A DNA stretch of 64,000 nt from Dehalococcoidia bacterium (GCA_040902195.1 JBBDXS010000002.1:100441-164440); one strand, 5' to 3'. Counted from the first letter of the stretch, positions 1 through 5,824 are shown. Program-made: numbers and translations. Notes: generated by a model from the sequence alone, not told the origin.

Positions 1-1014
1 GGCACCAAGTCCAACAGCAAGGTCGTATGTCTTGCGATCCACTTGCCGTTCGTACTCACGAGCAGCCTGACATCCCCCTGGGTTGTCCCCGGTAACTGGG
101 TCTACTAAGCCCCGACAATCGTCCGGTGGCGGGTTGTCCCCGATAGCGAAGTGGTTGTCGCCATCGGTCAAGAGAACGATCGTCTTTCGGGTCGTCTGAC
201 CGCTTGCTTCGAGAAGCTCATCAGCCTTTAGCAATGCACGGCAGATGTTTGTCCCGCCGCCGGGTGTGGTGGCAGCGATCACACTATGGAGCGCCGGAGC
301 GTTTGTGGTGAGTGGTGAGATCCAGGACGCCGGGATGCGGCCGGGCTGACCGAACAGGTAATAGTGGGCTTCGTAGGGAGCATAGCCGACCCGACTTGCG
401 GTGTTCAGTCCACCTAGCAATACGTCCACGAGGGTGTGAGCCGCGCTGCGCGCCTCGTCAATCGGGCAGCTACTCGTTCCAGCCTCCCCGTTGCAGCCAA
501 AATTCATGCTGCTAGATGCGTCAAGCAAGATGACCGTATCCGTGGGCACGGACTGGATCGTGAGGCCGGCGGCGGAGCTGGCTGAGATGTCGAAGGCGGG
601 GACGCCGAATATGCTGGAGAACAGCATTGTGGAAGGCTTAGTTATCGTGACGCGCAGGCTGTCGCAGTGGCTATCGGGCGGAGGCGTGGGACAGGGAGTG
701 GGTCCGGCGCCCGGGTTCGGGTTGTCGCAGATGGCCGTCGAGGACGAATCGTTGTAGCAGAGCAGATCAACGTCGACGCCACTTGCGGCGTAGCCGTTCT
801 TCGCCGCCCAGCCGTACGCAGCCGCGACGGCGTCGCTGTCGCTCACGAGCAGGTCTTGCGCGCCGGCGGCCGCGGCGAGATCGGCCGCGCGCTGGACGCT
901 GCGGCGCTCGGCGAGCCAGAGACCGACGTCGATGACGACGGCGGCCATGACGAAGATGACGGTGATCACGCCTACAAACAGCACGAGCGTTTGTCCTCGT
1001 TCCCCACGTTTCAT
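1..1014 (-). CDS. TadG-like pilus assembly protein with vWA domain (3' end runs off the window)
   Basis: Manual translation from ATG 1014: MKRGERGQTLVLFVGVITVIFVMAAVVIDVGLWLAERRSVQRAADLAAAAGA (prepilin G|Q site, Tad N-terminus), later DTVILLDAS, GGGTNI and IVLLTDG (vWA/MIDAS). ATG overlaps the stop of the TadE gene. Absent from the ORF track. Confidence 0.85.
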   Translation of the reverse strand, partial: MKRGERGQTLVLFVGVITVIFVMAAVVIDVGLWLAERRSVQRAADLAAAAGAQDLLVSDSDAVAAAYGWAAKNGYAASGVDVDLLCYNDSSSTAICDNPNPGAGPTPCPTPPPDSHCDSLRVTITKPSTMLFSSIFGVPAFDISASSAAGLTIQSVPTDTVILLDASSSMNFGCNGEAGTSSCPIDEARSAAHTLVDVLLGGLNTASRVGYAPYEAHYYLFGQPGRIPASWISPLTTNAPALHSVIAATTPGGGTNICRALLKADELLEASGQTTRKTIVLLTDGDNHFAIGDNPPPDDCRGLVDPVTGDNPGGCQAAREYERQVDRKTYDLAVGLGA

Positions 1015-1484
1015 CAGCAGCCCGTCGAATCCGGCGGGGTGTATTCGAGTCGCGCGTCTGCGCTGGCCAGCATAGGCAGACCCGGCAGGGAAACCCCCAC
1101 CAATGATCCCAATCCTGTCTGGAACTCGTATGTGTAATCGAGTTCAATCTCTACGTTGTCGCCTGTTTGGATCCCAGGGATCCCGTTCGCGTCTTCGTAA
1201 TTCACATCAACTGTGCCAGCCGCAAACATGCCCTTGGTCCCGTTGGCGGTTAGCTGTTGAATTTCTGAGCAGGTAACTGGCGCACCGCTAGAGAATGCAT
1301 TTCCCCCAACGGAGGCGTAGCGCGCACCTTCTCGCGCCGCGTGGTCAAGTATCAAGCGGCGGTTGACAGCCATGCCGAAATCGACAATCGCAAGCAAGAA
1401 GAGGATGATGAGCGGGGCCAGGAGCGCAAACTCCAAGAGTGCCTGGCCCCGCTCATCTCTTACTGGCTTCCGGTTGATCGGCAC
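1014..1484 (-). CDS. TadE family pseudopilin
   Basis: ERGQALLEFALLAPLIILFLLAIVDFG...AAREGARYAS; GTG start at 1484 after AGGA. Confidence 0.9.
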   Translation of the reverse strand: MPINRKPVRDERGQALLEFALLAPLIILFLLAIVDFGMAVNRRLILDHAAREGARYASVGGNAFSSGAPVTCSEIQQLTANGTKGMFAAGTVDVNYEDANGIPGIQTGDNVEIELDYTYEFQTGLGSLVGVSLPGLPMLASADARLEYTPPDSTGC

Positions 1485-1521
1485 GTCGCTTTTCCTAGTC
1501 GCGCTTATGAGCGTTCGCGAC

Positions 1522-1761
1522 CTACGGCGTGCACGGGGTCGACAGGTTGTCGAAGTCGATGCACTCGCCGATGCCGGCGGCCATTCCCTGCAACGGCCCT
1601 GTAAACGCAATCGCTCCAACGGCAACGAGCCCAGCCGCAATCAGGCCGCCGAGCAACGCGTACTCGAGCAGGTCCTGGCCGCGCTCTTCACGCAGGCGCG
1701 CGCCGAGGCCGCGGACGGCCAGGTAGCCGCGCATCAGCGCTTCGTTCAGTAGTGCAGTCAT
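1522..1761 (-). CDS. flp: Flp family type IVb pilin
   Basis: REERG|QDLLEYALL Flp motif followed by a hydrophobic helix; SD AAGGAGG. Confidence 0.9.
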   Translation of the reverse strand: MTALLNEALMRGYLAVRGLGARLREERGQDLLEYALLGGLIAAGLVAVGAIAFTGPLQGMAAGIGECIDFDNLSTPCTP

Positions 1762-1767
1762 CTCTCT

Positions 1768-1900
1768 CCTCCTTGTGTCCGGCCCGGGGCGGGACAGTGT
1801 CCACGCCCCGGACCAAAACGCGCTAGTAGTTGGTGTTCACGCTCGTCGTGTTCTTCGCCTCGCACCTCCTTGTGAACTGCCGGCGGCGGGGACTGCCGGC
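1768..1900 (-). promoter_or_regulatory. flp leader with two hairpin + CACAAGGAGG units (candidate CsrA-type sites)
   Basis: Exact 10-nt repeat at 1865-1874 and 1768-1777, each preceded by a GC-rich hairpin. Confidence 0.45.
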
Positions 1901-1907
1901 AACAAGC

Positions 1908-2789
1908 TCATGCCGATTCGCTCAGTTGCCCCTCCGGCGGGAGCGGCAGTGTCAAGCACAACGCCAGCGCGGACGGCCCCATCAGCTCCACCCAGAGCAG
2001 CCCACCCAGCAGGTGGACATCGCGGGAGACCGCGTTGAGCGCGTGCGTCTCATCGCCGAGGTGGTCGGCGAGGTGGACGAAAGCCCGCGCGCCCGCCCGT
2101 GCGGGCGTGGCCGCGATGCGCACCGTCCACTCGTCTTTGCCGGCCCGCGCCTCGACCGCGACGTGCGCGCTCCGCGGCGCCAGCGTCACGACCAGGCGCA
2201 GCAGGGCGACCAGCGCGCGCCGCAGACGCCCCGCGTCCGTGCGCATGTGCTGGCCGTCCGCGTCGACAAACGTCGAGAAGCGCTGGCGACGGCGTTTCGC
2301 CAGCGCGTACACCGCCGATGCGGCGGCCTCGATCGTCTCCTCCATGTCGACTTCCTCGATCGCCGAGCCGTTGCCGTTCTCGTGGGCGCTCTCGTCCCAG
2401 GTGCCCGAGCTCATGCTCACGTCGACGAGGCGGCTGACCTCCTCGGCGGGCAGCGGACGCGGCACGAAGCGCCAGATGCCTTCGGCGCGTGTGTTGAGCG
2501 TGAGCAGGCGTACGCCGGCGCCCCCGACGAGAATGCCGTGCGGCGGCAGGCGCACCTCGCCCAGCGCGTCCGCGATGTCGCGCGCGTCTTCGTCGTCGCG
2601 CACCTTGAGCGCGAGCACGTCGAAACGCTGCCGTTCGAGCAGCGCGAACACCTCGTCCGGGCTCGAGGCCTCCTGGTGCGAGTGGCCGGCCTGCTCCAGA
2701 CTGGCCGCCATCGCGCGACGCCAGCGCGGGTCGCGCGCGTACACGGCGACGTGCCCCAGCGCGGCCGGTTCGCCGTTCCTACGACCCAT
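1908..2789 (-). CDS. Degenerate receiver domain fused to a degenerate histidine-kinase ATPase-like domain (pseudokinase)
   Basis: FDVLALK in place of DLVLLD; DAGRLRRALVALLRLVVTLAP and LLGGLLWVE...LCLTLPL resemble HATPase_c without N/G boxes. Confidence 0.6.
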   Translation of the reverse strand: MGRRNGEPAALGHVAVYARDPRWRRAMAASLEQAGHSHQEASSPDEVFALLERQRFDVLALKVRDDEDARDIADALGEVRLPPHGILVGGAGVRLLTLNTRAEGIWRFVPRPLPAEEVSRLVDVSMSSGTWDESAHENGNGSAIEEVDMEETIEAAASAVYALAKRRRQRFSTFVDADGQHMRTDAGRLRRALVALLRLVVTLAPRSAHVAVEARAGKDEWTVRIAATPARAGARAFVHLADHLGDETHALNAVSRDVHLLGGLLWVELMGPSALALCLTLPLPPEGQLSESA

Positions 2790-3498
2790 GGCCGTTGTGC
2801 CCGTTCGTTGCGGCGGAGACCAATCGATAGCCGACGCCGCGTTCGTTCTGCAACAGGCGCGGCTCGTCTTCGTCGCGCAGCTTGCGACGGAGGTAGCGCA
2901 CGTAGAGACGCAGCTTTTCGTGTCCGTCGTCGCACGAAGCGCCCCACACTTCGGAGAGCAGCTCTTCGTGACTGGCCACATCGCCCTGGCGGCGCGCGAG
3001 CGCGAGCAGCAGGCGGAACTCCGTCGGCGTCAGCGCGACGGAGTAGCCGTTTTGCGAGACGGTATGGTTGCCCGGATCGACGAGCAGCTCGCCCACACGC
3101 TGCGGGGCGAACTGCGGGATGAGATCGAGCGCGCCCGAGCTGTACTGAGAGCGCAGCAGCGCCTGCAGCCGCGCCGCCAGCTCGCGCCGCGTTACGGGCC
3201 CGGACAGCACAGTATCCGCTCCGGCCTCGAGGCAGCGCACGACGAGGTCCGTGTCGCGCTCGACGCAGAGCGCGAGGAGCGGCACGCCATCGAGTGCCGC
3301 GAAACCCGGCTCGACGTCCAGCGCATGGTGGGCATCGAGGCGCACGAGCGCGGCCGCGACGTTCTCGCGCCGGGCCGTACGGGCCGCTTCGTCGAAATCG
3401 GGTGCCGTACGCAGCCCGAAGCCAGACAGCACGAGCTGTCCGGGCAGGGACGCGTCGACTGGATCGGCCAGGTCTAGAAGTAGGATAAGTTGAGCCAC
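2779..3498 (-). CDS. OmpR/PhoB-family response regulator with atypical receiver
   Basis: Intact winged helix (LTPTEFRLL...LRLYVRYLRRKL...ERGVGYRL); receiver lacks canonical Asp/Lys. Confidence 0.85.
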   Translation of the reverse strand: MAQLILLLDLADPVDASLPGQLVLSGFGLRTAPDFDEAARTARRENVAAALVRLDAHHALDVEPGFAALDGVPLLALCVERDTDLVVRCLEAGADTVLSGPVTRRELAARLQALLRSQYSSGALDLIPQFAPQRVGELLVDPGNHTVSQNGYSVALTPTEFRLLLALARRQGDVASHEELLSEVWGASCDDGHEKLRLYVRYLRRKLRDEDEPRLLQNERGVGYRLVSAATNGHNGHGS

Positions 3499-3617
3499 CC
3501 CGCGCCTCCTTGCTATTCGGCCCTGTGAAGCAAGTGTATTGGGGTATACCCGAAGATAGAAATAGAAAACCGGAATGAAAGTTGTAGGAGTTCGTTAACG
3601 CGGGTTGTTAGAGGCCG

Positions 3618-4376
3618 CTAACGAGGAGAGAGATCGGTCGCGCGCCGGCCGTTGTCGCCGCCGATTAGTTGCAAGCGGTAGCCGACGCCCCACTCGCTCA
3701 GGATTAGCTGTGGAGTGGCCGAATCGTCCTCAAGCTTTTCGCGCAGGTAGCGGATGTAGAGGCGCAGGTAGTGACGCGAATCGACGTATTCGGCGCCCCA
3801 GACGCGCGACATGAGCGTCTGGTGCGTCAGCACCTTCCCCGGCGACGACGCGAGGCACGCCAGCAGCCGGAATTCGATCGGCGAGAGGAAGACGCGCTTG
3901 CCCGCACGCTCGACGGAGTGGTCGGCGCTGCACAACGTCAGCTCGCCGACCTGACGCGTGTCCGTCAGCGTTGCCGGACGCAGCATGCGGCGCAGCAGCG
4001 CCTCAATGCGCGCCGTCAGCTCGCGGTCGCCCATCGGCAGCACGAGATACTCATCGATGCCCTCAGAGAGCGCGCGTGTGATCATCAGCTCGTCGGCGCG
4101 CTCCGAGAGCACGACGACAGGCGCCTCTGTGCGTTCGCGGACGGTTGTGCAGGCGGCGAGCAGCTCTTCGGGGTCGGGCGCGGGAACGAGCAGGACGAGC
4201 TCGGGTTGGAGCTCCTGCAGCCAGCCCTCCGAGGCGGCGGAGACGGGGCAGGAGACCACCTCGTACTGGTCCGGCGAGAGGCGCTGCGCCAGCGCGGCGC
4301 CGTCTTCGTGGCGGGCGTAGAGCAGCAGCAGCCTCGCATTGCGAGCTTCGCCGTTCGTGCTTCCCTGCGCTTGCAT
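3618..4376 (-). CDS. OmpR/KdpE-like response regulator with atypical receiver
   Basis: LSPIEFRLL...YLRLYIRYLREKLE...EWGVGYRL; PELVLLV and EYLVLP in place of PDLVLLD and DYLTKP; ATG 4376 after GGGAGGG. Confidence 0.85.
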   Translation of the reverse strand: MQAQGSTNGEARNARLLLLYARHEDGAALAQRLSPDQYEVVSCPVSAASEGWLQELQPELVLLVPAPDPEELLAACTTVRERTEAPVVVLSERADELMITRALSEGIDEYLVLPMGDRELTARIEALLRRMLRPATLTDTRQVGELTLCSADHSVERAGKRVFLSPIEFRLLACLASSPGKVLTHQTLMSRVWGAEYVDSRHYLRLYIRYLREKLEDDSATPQLILSEWGVGYRLQLIGGDNGRRATDLSPR

Positions 4377-4699
4377 CCACCCCTCCCCACGCCTGTCCTG
4401 CCGAGAGAACGACACCGCCGGCCCCGAGAGGCTAGCGGTGTCACAACGTCACGATACGCCAACGCATCGTTAGCGACGAGCGGGCCGAACGGCCCCGCGC
4501 GCATCGCGGAGTGCATAGTGCTTCGGGAAGGCGGATAGGGATTTCCCTTAGGGGAAGTAAGCAAAACTTCCTCACCCCCAGCGCCCCGACCACGTACTGG
4601 AGGGTGCGATCAGGGACACGACATCGCTTGCTGGCACGTTTAGTGTTCCTGCCGGCCATGGCGGTCGGAGTCATCGTTGCCGTCTCGTATAGTTTGACT

Positions 4700-5824
4700 A
4701 TGCCGGAGCGAGTAGACGTCGTCGTGATCGGCGCGGGCGTGATCGGGCTCGCGATCGCACAGGAGCTGTCGCGCGAGCGACAGGTTGTCGTGCTGGAACG
4801 GCACGGGAGCTACGGGCGCGAGAACAGCTCGCACAACAGCGGCATCATCCACGCGGGCATCTACTACCCGCGCGACTGGCTCAAGACCCAGCTCTGCATC
4901 GAGGGCAATCGATTGCTCTACCAGTGGGCGGAGGAGCACGGCGTCCGCGCGAAGCGCACCGGCAAGCTCATCATCGCGTCGGAGAGAGCCGAGCTGCCGG
5001 AGCTCGAGCTGCTGTACGAGTCGGCGCGCGCCGGCGGCGTGCCGGACATGTCGATGTGCTCCGCGGCACAGGTGCGCGAGCTGGAGCCTCACGTCGAGGC
5101 CGTCGCGGCCGTGTACTCCGGCTCGACGGGCGTCATCGACCAGATGGAGCTGATGGGATCGTACCGGGCGGCGGCGGAAGCGAACGGCGCGCTTATCGCG
5201 TTCAAACACACCGTGACGTCGCTCGCGCGCCGCGACGGCGGCTTCGCGATCGAGGCGCTCGATCCTGAGGGAGGGGGCTTCGCGATCGAGGCGTCGGTGC
5301 TGGTGAACAGCGCAGGGCTGGCCGCCGACCGCATCGCGTCGCTGCTCGGCTATCCGCTCGACGGCGACGGCTCGACGCCGCGGCTGCGCCAGCGCATCGT
5401 GAAGGGCCGTTACTCCGACATCGTCGCGCCGGAGAAGGCGCGGCTGGTGACGCGACCTGTCTATCCGCTACCGCAGGGCGACCGCGCCGGCCTCGGCACG
5501 CACGTTACGGTCGATATCGATGCGGGCGTGCACCTCGGGCCGGACACGGAGTGGCTCGATGAGCGAGCGACGCTCGAATTCCGCTCGGACGACACGCGAC
5601 GGAGCGAGTTCGTCGCGGCGGCGCGGCGTTACCTGCCGTGGCTGGAGGCGGACGACGTTGCGCCTGGGCAGGTGGGCTATCGGACGAAGCTACACGATCC
5701 GGGCGGCGGGCCGGCCGACTTCCTGATCTGGCACGACGCGGGCTACGTGCACATGGGCGGCATCGAATCGCCGGGCATGACGGCGAGCCTGGCGATCGCG
5801 AAGCGCGTGGCCAGGCTGTTCTAA
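4700..5824 (+). CDS. FAD-dependent oxidoreductase (L-2-hydroxyglutarate oxidase-like)
   Basis: GAGVIG, SSHNSGIIHAGIYY, GIESPGMTASLAIA; ATG 6 nt after TATAGT. Confidence 0.85.
   Translation: MPERVDVVVIGAGVIGLAIAQELSRERQVVVLERHGSYGRENSSHNSGIIHAGIYYPRDWLKTQLCIEGNRLLYQWAEEHGVRAKRTGKLIIASERAELPELELLYESARAGGVPDMSMCSAAQVRELEPHVEAVAAVYSGSTGVIDQMELMGSYRAAAEANGALIAFKHTVTSLARRDGGFAIEALDPEGGGFAIEASVLVNSAGLAADRIASLLGYPLDGDGSTPRLRQRIVKGRYSDIVAPEKARLVTRPVYPLPQGDRAGLGTHVTVDIDAGVHLGPDTEWLDERATLEFRSDDTRRSEFVAAARRYLPWLEADDVAPGQVGYRTKLHDPGGGPADFLIWHDAGYVHMGGIESPGMTASLAIAKRVARLF

Follow-up and report, generated by a model that had tools for sequence, protein, structure and literature searches.

Can a set of two-component-like genes lose the residues for phosphotransfer and still stand, under selection, at the head of a pilus operon? 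The question is raised by three co-oriented genes, here called RR1, RR2 and G3, at positions 1,908 to 4,376 of a 64,000-nucleotide stretch of DNA from a Dehalococcoidia bacterium (GCA_040902195.1, JBBDXS010000002.1:100441-164440), which we refer to as the window. The window comes from contig C2 of a 2.6-Mb metagenome-assembled genome (MAG) that is 82.5% complete and whose closest named relatives are Dehalococcoidia/Chloroflexota MAGs. An earlier reading of the sequence alone, the original prediction, had proposed that the products of all three genes are phosphorylation-dead, and that they form a phosphorylation-independent switch for the Flp/Tad pilus rather than a set of decaying genes. Our analysis makes it probable, in our judgement, that the trio is a conserved phosphorylation-independent regulatory module heading the Flp/Tad pilus operon in an uncultured lineage of Chloroflexota related to Dehalococcoidia.

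Receiver residues in the two regulators

According to a 2025 review, a receiver that lacks any one of five residues (the acidic pair, the phospho-accepting Asp, the Thr/Ser and the Lys) is a pseudo-receiver (PMC12632262; this article and the others given here by PMC number are cited from excerpts). The window proteins were examined against solved relatives, against their own families, and in a joint alignment with RR1-type and RR2-type homologues and eight canonical relatives. The Pfam cut-offs are 30.2 bits for the receiver (Response_reg) and 26.2 bits for the DNA-binding domain (Trans_reg_C).

RR1 matched Trans_reg_C above the cut-off (8.4e-23) and Response_reg below it (24.2 bits). Its closest solved relative was KdpE (5.5e-34), and the full-length alignment to that protein suggests that the receiver fold is present. 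In the same alignment the phospho-Asp is replaced by Val or falls in a gap, and the Lys is replaced by Leu (EYLVLP against DYLSKP). The residues concerned are Val64 (phospho-site), Leu113 (Lys position) and Tyr20-Ala21 (acidic pair); Ser91 and Tyr110 have been retained. The family, assembled from the window protein and 120 database homologues of 52-92% identity (121 rows), follows this pattern. Lys was absent from its column in all 121 rows (L78, M14, E10, others), the first acidic position was Tyr in 101, and the phospho-site column read L27/A25/D22/V17/S11/T7/E4 and others, with the Ser/Thr (S110, T3) and the aromatic switch residue (Y117, F3) kept almost throughout. Judged on its sequence, RR1 is thus a pseudo-receiver by the definition in PMC12632262, with both residues of the acidic pair, the phospho-Asp and the Lys all lost.

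Two RR1-like matches elsewhere, in genomes G010 and G017, were rejected as orthologues: their receivers are canonical, with the acidic pair present, they cluster with canonical regulators, and no tad genes were found in the DNA retrieved around them.

The same division between a kept DNA-binding domain and a degenerate receiver was seen in RR2, which matched Trans_reg_C at 1.7e-21, above the cut-off, and Response_reg at 15.6 bits, below it. Against its closest solved relatives, PrrA and MtrA (~8e-24), the Lys is replaced by Gly (TVLSGP), the Thr/Ser by Cys, and the Asp by a gap or Leu; across aligners the phospho-Asp position fell on a gap, Leu or Arg. The replacing residues are Gly100 (for the Lys) and Cys78 (for the Thr/Ser); the acidic pair reads Asp-Leu, of which Asp9 alone is kept. 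Its family spans 41-92% identity (41 rows, leaving out the truncated P0040; another alignment has 42 rows). Lys occurred in 0/41 rows at its column (A21, E8, G6, others), Thr/Ser in 6/41 at a position where 29/41 have Cys, the first Asp of the acidic pair in 33/41, and a second acidic residue in 0/41.

The AlphaFold model of RR2, built from the 41-row alignment (predicted local distance difference test, pLDDT, 88.8), comprises a complete receiver and a winged helix, and HP1043, GlnR and RitR structures were among its fold matches. Strand 3 of the model spans residues 49-54 and places Asp55, of the LVRLD segment, at its C-terminal tip, an acceptor-like place; helix 3 begins at residue 56, and the loop between strand 3 and helix 3 is shorter than usual. 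Asp55 is not conserved. Its column read G15/A9/D6/E6 and the next one D14/A6/E4, so that an Asp stands at position 55 or 56 in 19/41 relatives. Because the Lys and the second metal-binding acidic residue are lost family-wide and Asp55 is variable, we read RR2 as a probable pseudo-receiver that has lost the second Asp of the pair, the Thr/Ser and the Lys, while on the model Asp55 of the window's own RR2 might still accept phosphate.

The original prediction had taken the beta3 Asp and the beta5 Lys to be replaced in both regulators and their winged-helix domains to be intact. The DNA-binding domains are indeed intact, by the Pfam matches and by the fold of the RR2 model. Both replacements stood for RR1 and the Lys replacement for RR2, but for the RR2 Asp the picture is mixed: a shifted Asp in LVRLD, which the prediction itself had named as grounds for doubt, does lie at the phospho-site in the model, but is variable across the family. 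The substitutions recur throughout each protein family, and therefore the receiver losses are not chance.

As a side observation, cysteines are conserved in both regulators (in RR1, C43 in 44/49, C76 in 49/49 and C174 in 47/49 rows; in RR2, C78 in 29/41 and C89 in 25/41) and could provide a redox or metal input.

A receiver fold joined to a kinase-like fold in G3

The third protein, G3, gave a single Pfam match, to Response_reg at 12.4 bits, below the cut-off, and no match to HisKA. A six-frame scan of the genome that detected 12 other HATPase_c domains returned none in G3. The structural model (28-row alignment; pLDDT 77.5, predicted template modelling score 0.78) consists of a five-stranded receiver at residues 14-126, an 18-residue linker of low confidence around ~129-140, and an alpha/beta sandwich at ~145-293. 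The model contains no helical hairpin of the dimerisation and histidine phosphotransfer (DHp) type and no H-box, and the linker leads directly into a domain of the catalytic and ATP-binding (CA) type. The C-terminal fold (140-287) aligned in VIA-align with GacS (Z 18.5), the CA domain of VanS-A (18.4), DivL (18.1) and ShkA (16.7), and Foldseek matched the CA half to the CA domain of ThkA at 1.8e-10. The family profile matched the CA domain of FixL (9.7e-06) and the receivers of FixJ and NtrC (~1e-03).

These relatives show what has been lost on both sides of the linker. Compared with the FixJ and NtrC receivers, G3 has Ala-Arg at the acidic pair and Lys62 in place of the phospho-Asp (FDVLALK); the Lys position holds Arg109, and Gly in the family consensus. 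Against the FixL CA domain, G3 has Ala in place of the N-box Asn and Ala/Ser/Ala and others in place of the G1 box, and G2 lies within a four-residue deletion. In the G3 alignment, which holds the window protein and 27 of its 38 homologues (11 near-identical, truncated or unsampled proteins were omitted), the phospho-site column read K19/R6/S1/Y1/Q1, with Asp in 0/28. By these alignments G3 is a pseudo-receiver without the acidic pair, the phospho-Asp, the Thr/Ser and the Lys, and of the features of a sensor histidine kinase the model retains the CA sandwich fold alone. The prediction's description of the third gene, as a degenerate receiver with an HATPase-like C-terminus that lacks the N-box Asn, the G boxes and an H-box, therefore agrees with both profile alignment and model. 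Its suggestion of a DivL-like pseudokinase did not hold, because G3 has no DHp domain at all; for the same reason G3 is not of the ChpT type. One homologue has a precomputed PF10090 (HPTransfase) label, which reflects the degenerate CA domain alone.

Within its degenerate domains G3 is far from featureless. R19, D20, R22, W23, R64, D65, G89 and P110, together with H13, H36, D57 and H84, were conserved in at least 90% of the 28 rows. From the receiver topology, the set from R19 to P110 would cluster at the strand ends that once formed the active site, and H13, H36, D57 and H84 where the strands start, on the opposite side. The invariant His/His/Asp/His set at the strand starts is a possible redox or metal input. 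Neither Pfam nor the model gave a DNA-binding domain in G3.

Among 5.8 billion clustered proteins, a search returned 38 intact G3 homologues of similar length and 46-97% identity. Against 1.84 billion representatives, the G3 profile matched 10 proteins at E<=1e-30, 35 at <=1e-10 and 1172 at <=1e-3; the 10 best were full-length members and fragments, and the long tail consisted of ordinary kinases recognised through the CA half. Two further leads were set aside. P0279, a 543-residue protein with a G3-like C-terminal half, was considered as a fusion of RR2 and G3; its N-terminal 260 residues are unlike RR2 and have no Pfam match, and it therefore gives no Rosetta-stone evidence. Clusters in a protein atlas (receiver; receiver with HATPase) that scored 0.89-0.94 were leads and not relatives.

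The second tier of the G3 search consisted of proteins of ~290-317 residues, 11/13 of which, among those tested, matched HATPase_c. Their N-terminus is the same half-receiver as in G3, the AGH motif included; a helical segment with an H-box-like His in 10/14 rows follows, and the N-box Asn and G1 are lost from the CA domain in most of these members too. Aligning the G3 family with this ~305-residue family in hhalign gave a probability of 99.6% and E 1.4e-24 over 264 columns, with confident matching over the first 40 residues and throughout the CA domain but not in the middle, where the second half of the receiver fold in G3 replaces the His helix region of the other family. From this homology G3 is sister to, or derived from, a family of small soluble kinase-like proteins. 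G3 would thus represent a new small family in which a receiver fold is joined directly to a nucleotide-blind CA fold without a DHp domain, and, together with the sister family that has the His helix, it offers a possible series for the conversion of a kinase into an adaptor.

The pilus locus, its relatives and its non-coding DNA

Every gene in positions 1-4376 is on the minus strand, and 1908-4376 runs exactly from the G3 stop to the RR1 start, so the co-oriented trio leading into flp is as the original prediction had described it. The ATG of G3 overlaps the RR2 stop codon by 11 nucleotides. The features are listed in Table 1.

Table 1. Features of the trio and the adjoining pilus genes, in order of transcription (window positions)
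Feature	Position	Strand	Remarks
Conserved blocks upstream of RR1	4441-4530	minus	Four-locus alignment, 32 invariant columns
RR1, OmpR/KdpE-like regulator, 252 aa, aspartate-less pseudo-receiver by sequence	3618-4376	minus	ATG preceded by GGGAGGGG
RR1-RR2 intergenic region, 119 nt	3499-3617	minus	
RR2, OmpR-type regulator, 239 aa, read as pseudo-receiver	2779-3498	minus	GTG start preceded by AAGGAGG
G3, 293 aa, soluble, predicted pseudo-receiver and degenerate histidine-kinase CA fold	1908-2789	minus	
G3-flp intergenic leader, 146 nt	1762-1907	minus	
flp, Flp-type prepilin, 79 aa, G/QDLLEY	1522-1761	minus	G/xxxxEY motif read directly; Flp_Fap weak, 13.3 bits
tadE-like minor pilin	1014-1484	minus	TadE 8.5e-16; GTG at 1484 after AGGAAAAG taken as start
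tadG-like, von Willebrand A domain, extends past window edge	1-1014	minus	Pfam Tad/Tad_C/VWA

Beyond the window edge the contig (locus L004) continues, in the same orientation, with cpaB, cpaE, cpaF, tadB, tadC and two proteins without a family. Pfam matched RcpC at 1.3e-25, a ParA-type domain with a receiver, T2SSE at 1.8e-64 and T2SSF twice, and an A24 prepilin peptidase is encoded on the same contig ~19 kb from the window start. With flp, TadE/TadG, RcpC/CpaB, CpaE/TadZ, CpaF/TadA, TadB and TadC all present, this is a Tad/Flp (type IVc) pilus locus. An unrelated oxidoreductase-like open reading frame (ORF) lies upstream of RR1 on the opposite strand. The six-frame HATPase_c scan of the genome found no canonical kinase adjoining the trio, unlike at least five other OmpR-type genes in the same genome, which lie within ~2 kb of an HATPase_c match. 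The CpaE/TadZ homologue (L004:14118-15353, minus) has a receiver above the Pfam cut-off (53.8 bits), in whose translation Asp-Gln replaces the acidic pair, Cys the phospho-Asp and Thr the Lys; by sequence it is a fourth degenerate receiver within the operon.

The same arrangement recurs in relatives. In the genome collection, G3 lies between the RR1 type, upstream, and flp-tadE-tadG, downstream, in all three loci, and two of the three have RR2; L005 has ~400 nucleotides between RR1 and G3. The metagenome collection added 16 loci. Among the 12 with sufficient DNA past G3, flp is the next gene in 11 and cpaE in one (L034); the remaining four end within ~215 nucleotides after G3. At least 200 nucleotides upstream were available in 11 metagenome loci, and in nine of them an OmpR-type gene lies directly upstream of G3. 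Both regulator types were recognisable in L034, L035, L043 and L045, and L042 holds the end of RR1 and a short RR2-like piece; L037 is probably from the same organism as L007, as the identity values are identical. Linkage to flp/tad, which the original prediction had proposed to check across Dehalococcoidia, was kept in every locus that could be judged (12/12 metagenome, 3/3 genome). Two of these loci also showed rearrangements: in L034 (1653-2899) G3 is followed by cpaE without flp-tadE-tadG-cpaB between them, and in L046 an insert of ~2 kb (1500-3470) contains a small secreted-protein ORF and repeated ORF fragments.

More distant relatives have related layouts. In G286 and G016, which belong to other families, two OmpR regulators, in which Glu replaces the phospho-Asp and Met/Arg the Lys, are followed by a ~305-residue kinase-like protein, a von Willebrand A (vWA) protein, and flp-tadE onward. 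G105, also from another family, has two regulators with the Asp and without the standard Lys, a vWA protein of the same type, and flp through tadC; no G3-like gene was found in this locus. The vWA protein between the regulators and flp in distant relatives (L020:5287-7032, L031:7819-9324) is large and secreted or membrane-bound, and its C-terminal part resembles the C-terminus of U1, an unassigned protein of the window's own locus (L004:10129-10926, 265 residues); Pfam detected neither FHA nor any other family in this part. In a maximum-likelihood tree of 21 rows, RR1 orthologues grouped at 100/100, this group joined the first regulators of G286 and G105 weakly (83/79), and RR2 was sister to RR1 plus the first-regulator group (91/97).

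The DNA between these genes is conserved as well. Upstream of RR1 the blocks include TTxCCGAAGC at ~4520-4529 and a TTATCGTAAAGT-like block at ~4446-4456, which may be a -10 element, with a TTGACA-like -35 sequence 17 nucleotides upstream in L007 and L019. The RR1-RR2 spacer is AT-richer than its surroundings and contains the blocks CTCTAAC, TTCCTAC, TTTCATTCCGGTTT and TACACT; 58 of its columns are invariant in three genomes whose flanking proteins are just 44-66% identical, which makes it a candidate internal promoter/operator for RR2-G3. The flp leader holds, 5' to 3', a GC hairpin just past the G3 stop, AGGAGGT, an AC-rich stretch and a second hairpin before the flp ribosome-binding site, and both hairpins are present in its centroid fold (z -1.84). 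The conserved non-coding blocks are, on sequence conservation, the best candidates for regulator binding sites. A scan of 1400-4800 for consensus sigma-70 promoters and terminators gave no site of either kind, and TCTAACA, considered as a motif of a wider regulon, was rejected (2 in the window against 1.34 expected). The only Rfam match in 1400-4800 was a weak one to Chloroflexi-1 RNA within the RR1 coding sequence (3952-4040, minus; 24.8 bits against a gathering threshold of 80, E 0.054), which is probably due to chance.

The AGGAGGT of the leader (1864-1870, minus) lies ~100 nucleotides before the flp ATG; it is invariant in 4/4 close loci, and two distant loci have GGGGGTGAGG. No start codon lies at Shine-Dalgarno distance from it. 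A Shine-Dalgarno-like element acts as an mRNA stabiliser in Bacillus cryIIIA, and AGGAGGT could be such a stabiliser, or a processing mark, for an abundant pilin transcript.

A probable regulatory module without phosphotransfer and its known counterparts

How might such a trio work? RR1 and RR2 would be DNA-binders of the OmpR family whose pseudo-receivers serve dimerisation or sensing instead of phospho-acceptance. Their dimers, possibly heterodimers, would be constitutive or controlled by a ligand or partner, and would most likely bind conserved repeats in the RR1-RR2 spacer and near the flp leader, setting transcription of RR2-G3 and of flp/tad. G3, a cytoplasmic pseudo-receiver with a nucleotide-blind CA fold, most likely has no enzymatic role and would serve as a sensor or adaptor, binding a partner or a small ligand and thereby modulating the regulators or the pilus machine. 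What the analysis shows directly is the folding of the domains, the family-wide disappearance of catalytic residues, open frames under constraint and a gene order shared with tad. Which DNA the regulators bind, in which direction they act, what G3 contacts and what signal comes in are inferred, and so, from gene position, is the regulation of flp. Prediction of a complex of RR1, RR2 and G3, with G3 as partner, scored 0.00 in two runs, which speaks neither for nor against binding. A bolder version, in which a complete two-component pathway was rebuilt without phosphate, seems unlikely to us: here G3 would be a small-molecule sensor (of a second messenger such as cyclic di-GMP on the remodelled Arg/Trp-rich pocket, or of metal or redox state on His13-His36-Asp57-His84) that contacts both regulators directly and switches flp/tad, the sister family would be an intermediate, and the conversion of kinase to adaptor would be a recurrent tad-linked theme in monoderm soil and sediment bacteria.

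A number of observations weigh against the module as we propose it. Some concern its distribution. Of 401 genomes sampled from the class, two have full-length G3 (the present one and another of its family), and hence the module in its G3 form is restricted to a narrow lineage; RR2 is missing from L005 and L038, so that the trio occurs in only part of that lineage; in L046, RR1 lies ~2 kb from G3 with unrelated ORFs between; and no regulator was detected in the 446 nucleotides upstream of G3 in L039. In the tree, the distant loci have second regulators that fall into a clade of their own (100/100) and are not RR2 orthologues, and therefore the second regulator is not one and the same gene throughout. 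Others concern chemistry and expression. Asp is retained at the canonical phospho-site column in 22/121 RR1 relatives, and Asp55 of RR2 occupies its acceptor-like place in the model, with Asp there or next to it in almost half of the family. The runs listed as containing this DNA were DNA runs, one of them probably from the source sample, with no RNA run among them.

The gene content of the operon also allows G3, with or without the regulators, to act on the pilus machine itself, docking on the CpaE/TadZ pseudo-receiver or the CpaF ATPase and controlling assembly, retraction or localisation. The absence of a DNA-binding domain from G3, the placement of cpaE directly after G3 in L034 and the degenerate receiver of CpaE all fit this idea, but G3 is translationally coupled to RR2 through the 11-nucleotide overlap and, like the regulators, precedes flp in almost every locus, and we think this idea quite unlikely. 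Distinctly improbable, in our estimate, is a module still driven by phosphorylation in an unorthodox manner, with Asp55 of RR2 or the Asp of some RR1 proteins being phosphorylated by an orphan kinase or a small donor, or with conserved Ser, Cys or His residues being modified. Such a mechanism would draw on Asp55 at the tip of strand 3, on Asp9 (33/41 RR2 relatives), on the Asp of 22/121 RR1 proteins and their conserved Ser91 (S 110/121) and Tyr110 (Y 117/121), on the cysteines (RR1 C43 44/49 and C76 49/49, RR2 C78 29/41) and on the His of the H-box-like helix in 10/14 sister-family members; it would have to do without the Lys (0/121 RR1, 0/41 RR2) and the second acidic residue (0/41 RR2), with an Asp55 column that has D in 6/41 and G in 15/41, and with a G3 that lacks every ATP-binding motif and the DHp domain. 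Because Asp occurs at or near position 55 of RR2 and in 22/121 RR1 proteins, some residual phosphorylation, through other residues or small donors, may nevertheless persist.

Decay of a former two-component system, of which the three genes would be functionless remnants, is scarcely credible. All three receivers do fall below the Pfam cut-off, and RR1 and G3 have apparent breaks in L007, though L007 contains runs of N. However, frames are intact in 38 G3, >120 RR1 and >40 RR2 homologues, gene order is conserved, and invariant residues lie inside the degenerate domains. Mean pairwise identity was 0.57 for the receiver and 0.77 for the DNA-binding domain of RR1, 0.42 and 0.59 for those of RR2, and 0.58 and 0.57 for the receiver and CA halves of G3. 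Nei-Gojobori ratios of nonsynonymous to synonymous substitution (dN/dS) were 0.21 (RR1), 0.43 (RR2) and 0.32 (G3) against the same-family genome and 0.33 (RR1) and 0.48 (G3) against L005, all below 0.5, with dS at 0.76-1.26, near saturation, which makes the values rough and is one more reason for caution about the module. The claim of the original prediction that the trio is not decaying is upheld by these intact homologues with the same substitutions, the conserved receiver halves and the dN/dS values. Of its proposal of a phosphorylation-independent pilus switch, the absence of decay and the linkage to tad stand, and the switch itself draws on gene order and two conserved intergenic regions. 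A phosphorylation-independent module at the head of the operon thus remains the reading we prefer.

Receivers without the Asp are a minority: they make up ~4% of receivers (PMC12548384) and ~2% of OmpR-type architectures, with Chloroflexi among the enriched groups (PMC4395418). How pseudo-receivers switch on and off is, according to the 2025 review, largely unknown (PMC12632262). The present locus offers a compact natural case in which two regulators and a kinase-like partner without phosphotransfer chemistry are under selection beside a defined operon, and RR1, RR2 and G3 are small and soluble, hence approachable in vitro although the organism is uncultured. For Chloroflexota, it may be a pointer to the control of adhesion and pilus genes in widespread sediment and soil relatives of Dehalococcoidia. 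Our literature search, which left most subscription journals outside its scope, found neither this trio nor a tad-linked receiver-CA protein without a DHp domain described, and no atypical regulator or pseudokinase tied to Flp/Tad in Chloroflexota.

Activity independent of phosphorylation has been described for HP1043/HsrA of Helicobacter pylori, ChxR of Chlamydia, GlnR of actinomycetes and RitR of streptococci. Like RR1 and RR2, they combine a winged-helix OmpR output with a degenerate receiver and have no partner kinase. Unlike them, the present regulators form a tandem pair, are joined by a third pseudo-component and head a tad operon, and in sequence they are closest to KdpE, MtrA and PrrA. 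Two-component control of Flp/Tad genes is itself familiar: in Pseudomonas aeruginosa, PprA-PprB adjoins and controls them. A two-component system also lies beside the flp/tad cluster of Pectobacterium (PMC3767616). These proteobacterial systems have been described as working kinase-regulator pairs from other families, whereas here no component keeps the phosphotransfer residues.

For G3, the nearest precedents are in Caulobacter, where DivL reuses a kinase scaffold as a sensor of a response regulator and not as a catalyst (PMC4211667), and where ShkA has a pseudo-receiver beside its CA domain that binds cyclic di-GMP (PMC7010744). The CA folds of both match that of G3, but both have a DHp domain and ShkA is an active kinase, whereas G3, at 293 residues, has neither DHp domain nor His helix nor ATP motifs. 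The closest operon layout described is CmrRST of Clostridioides difficile, with two OmpR regulators and a kinase-type protein, which controls motility, chaining and biofilm formation; CmrT has a pseudo-receiver in which Glu takes the place of the Asp, and CmrR and CmrT can form homo- and heterodimers (PMC12548384). There, CmrR has a typical receiver and CmrS is a typical kinase (PMC12548384), whereas here all three components are degenerate, the order is regulator-regulator-G3 and the neighbours are tad genes; the likeness is one of layout and implies no sequence relationship. Set beside these systems, the trio is most likely a new variation on the known "atypical" regulators.

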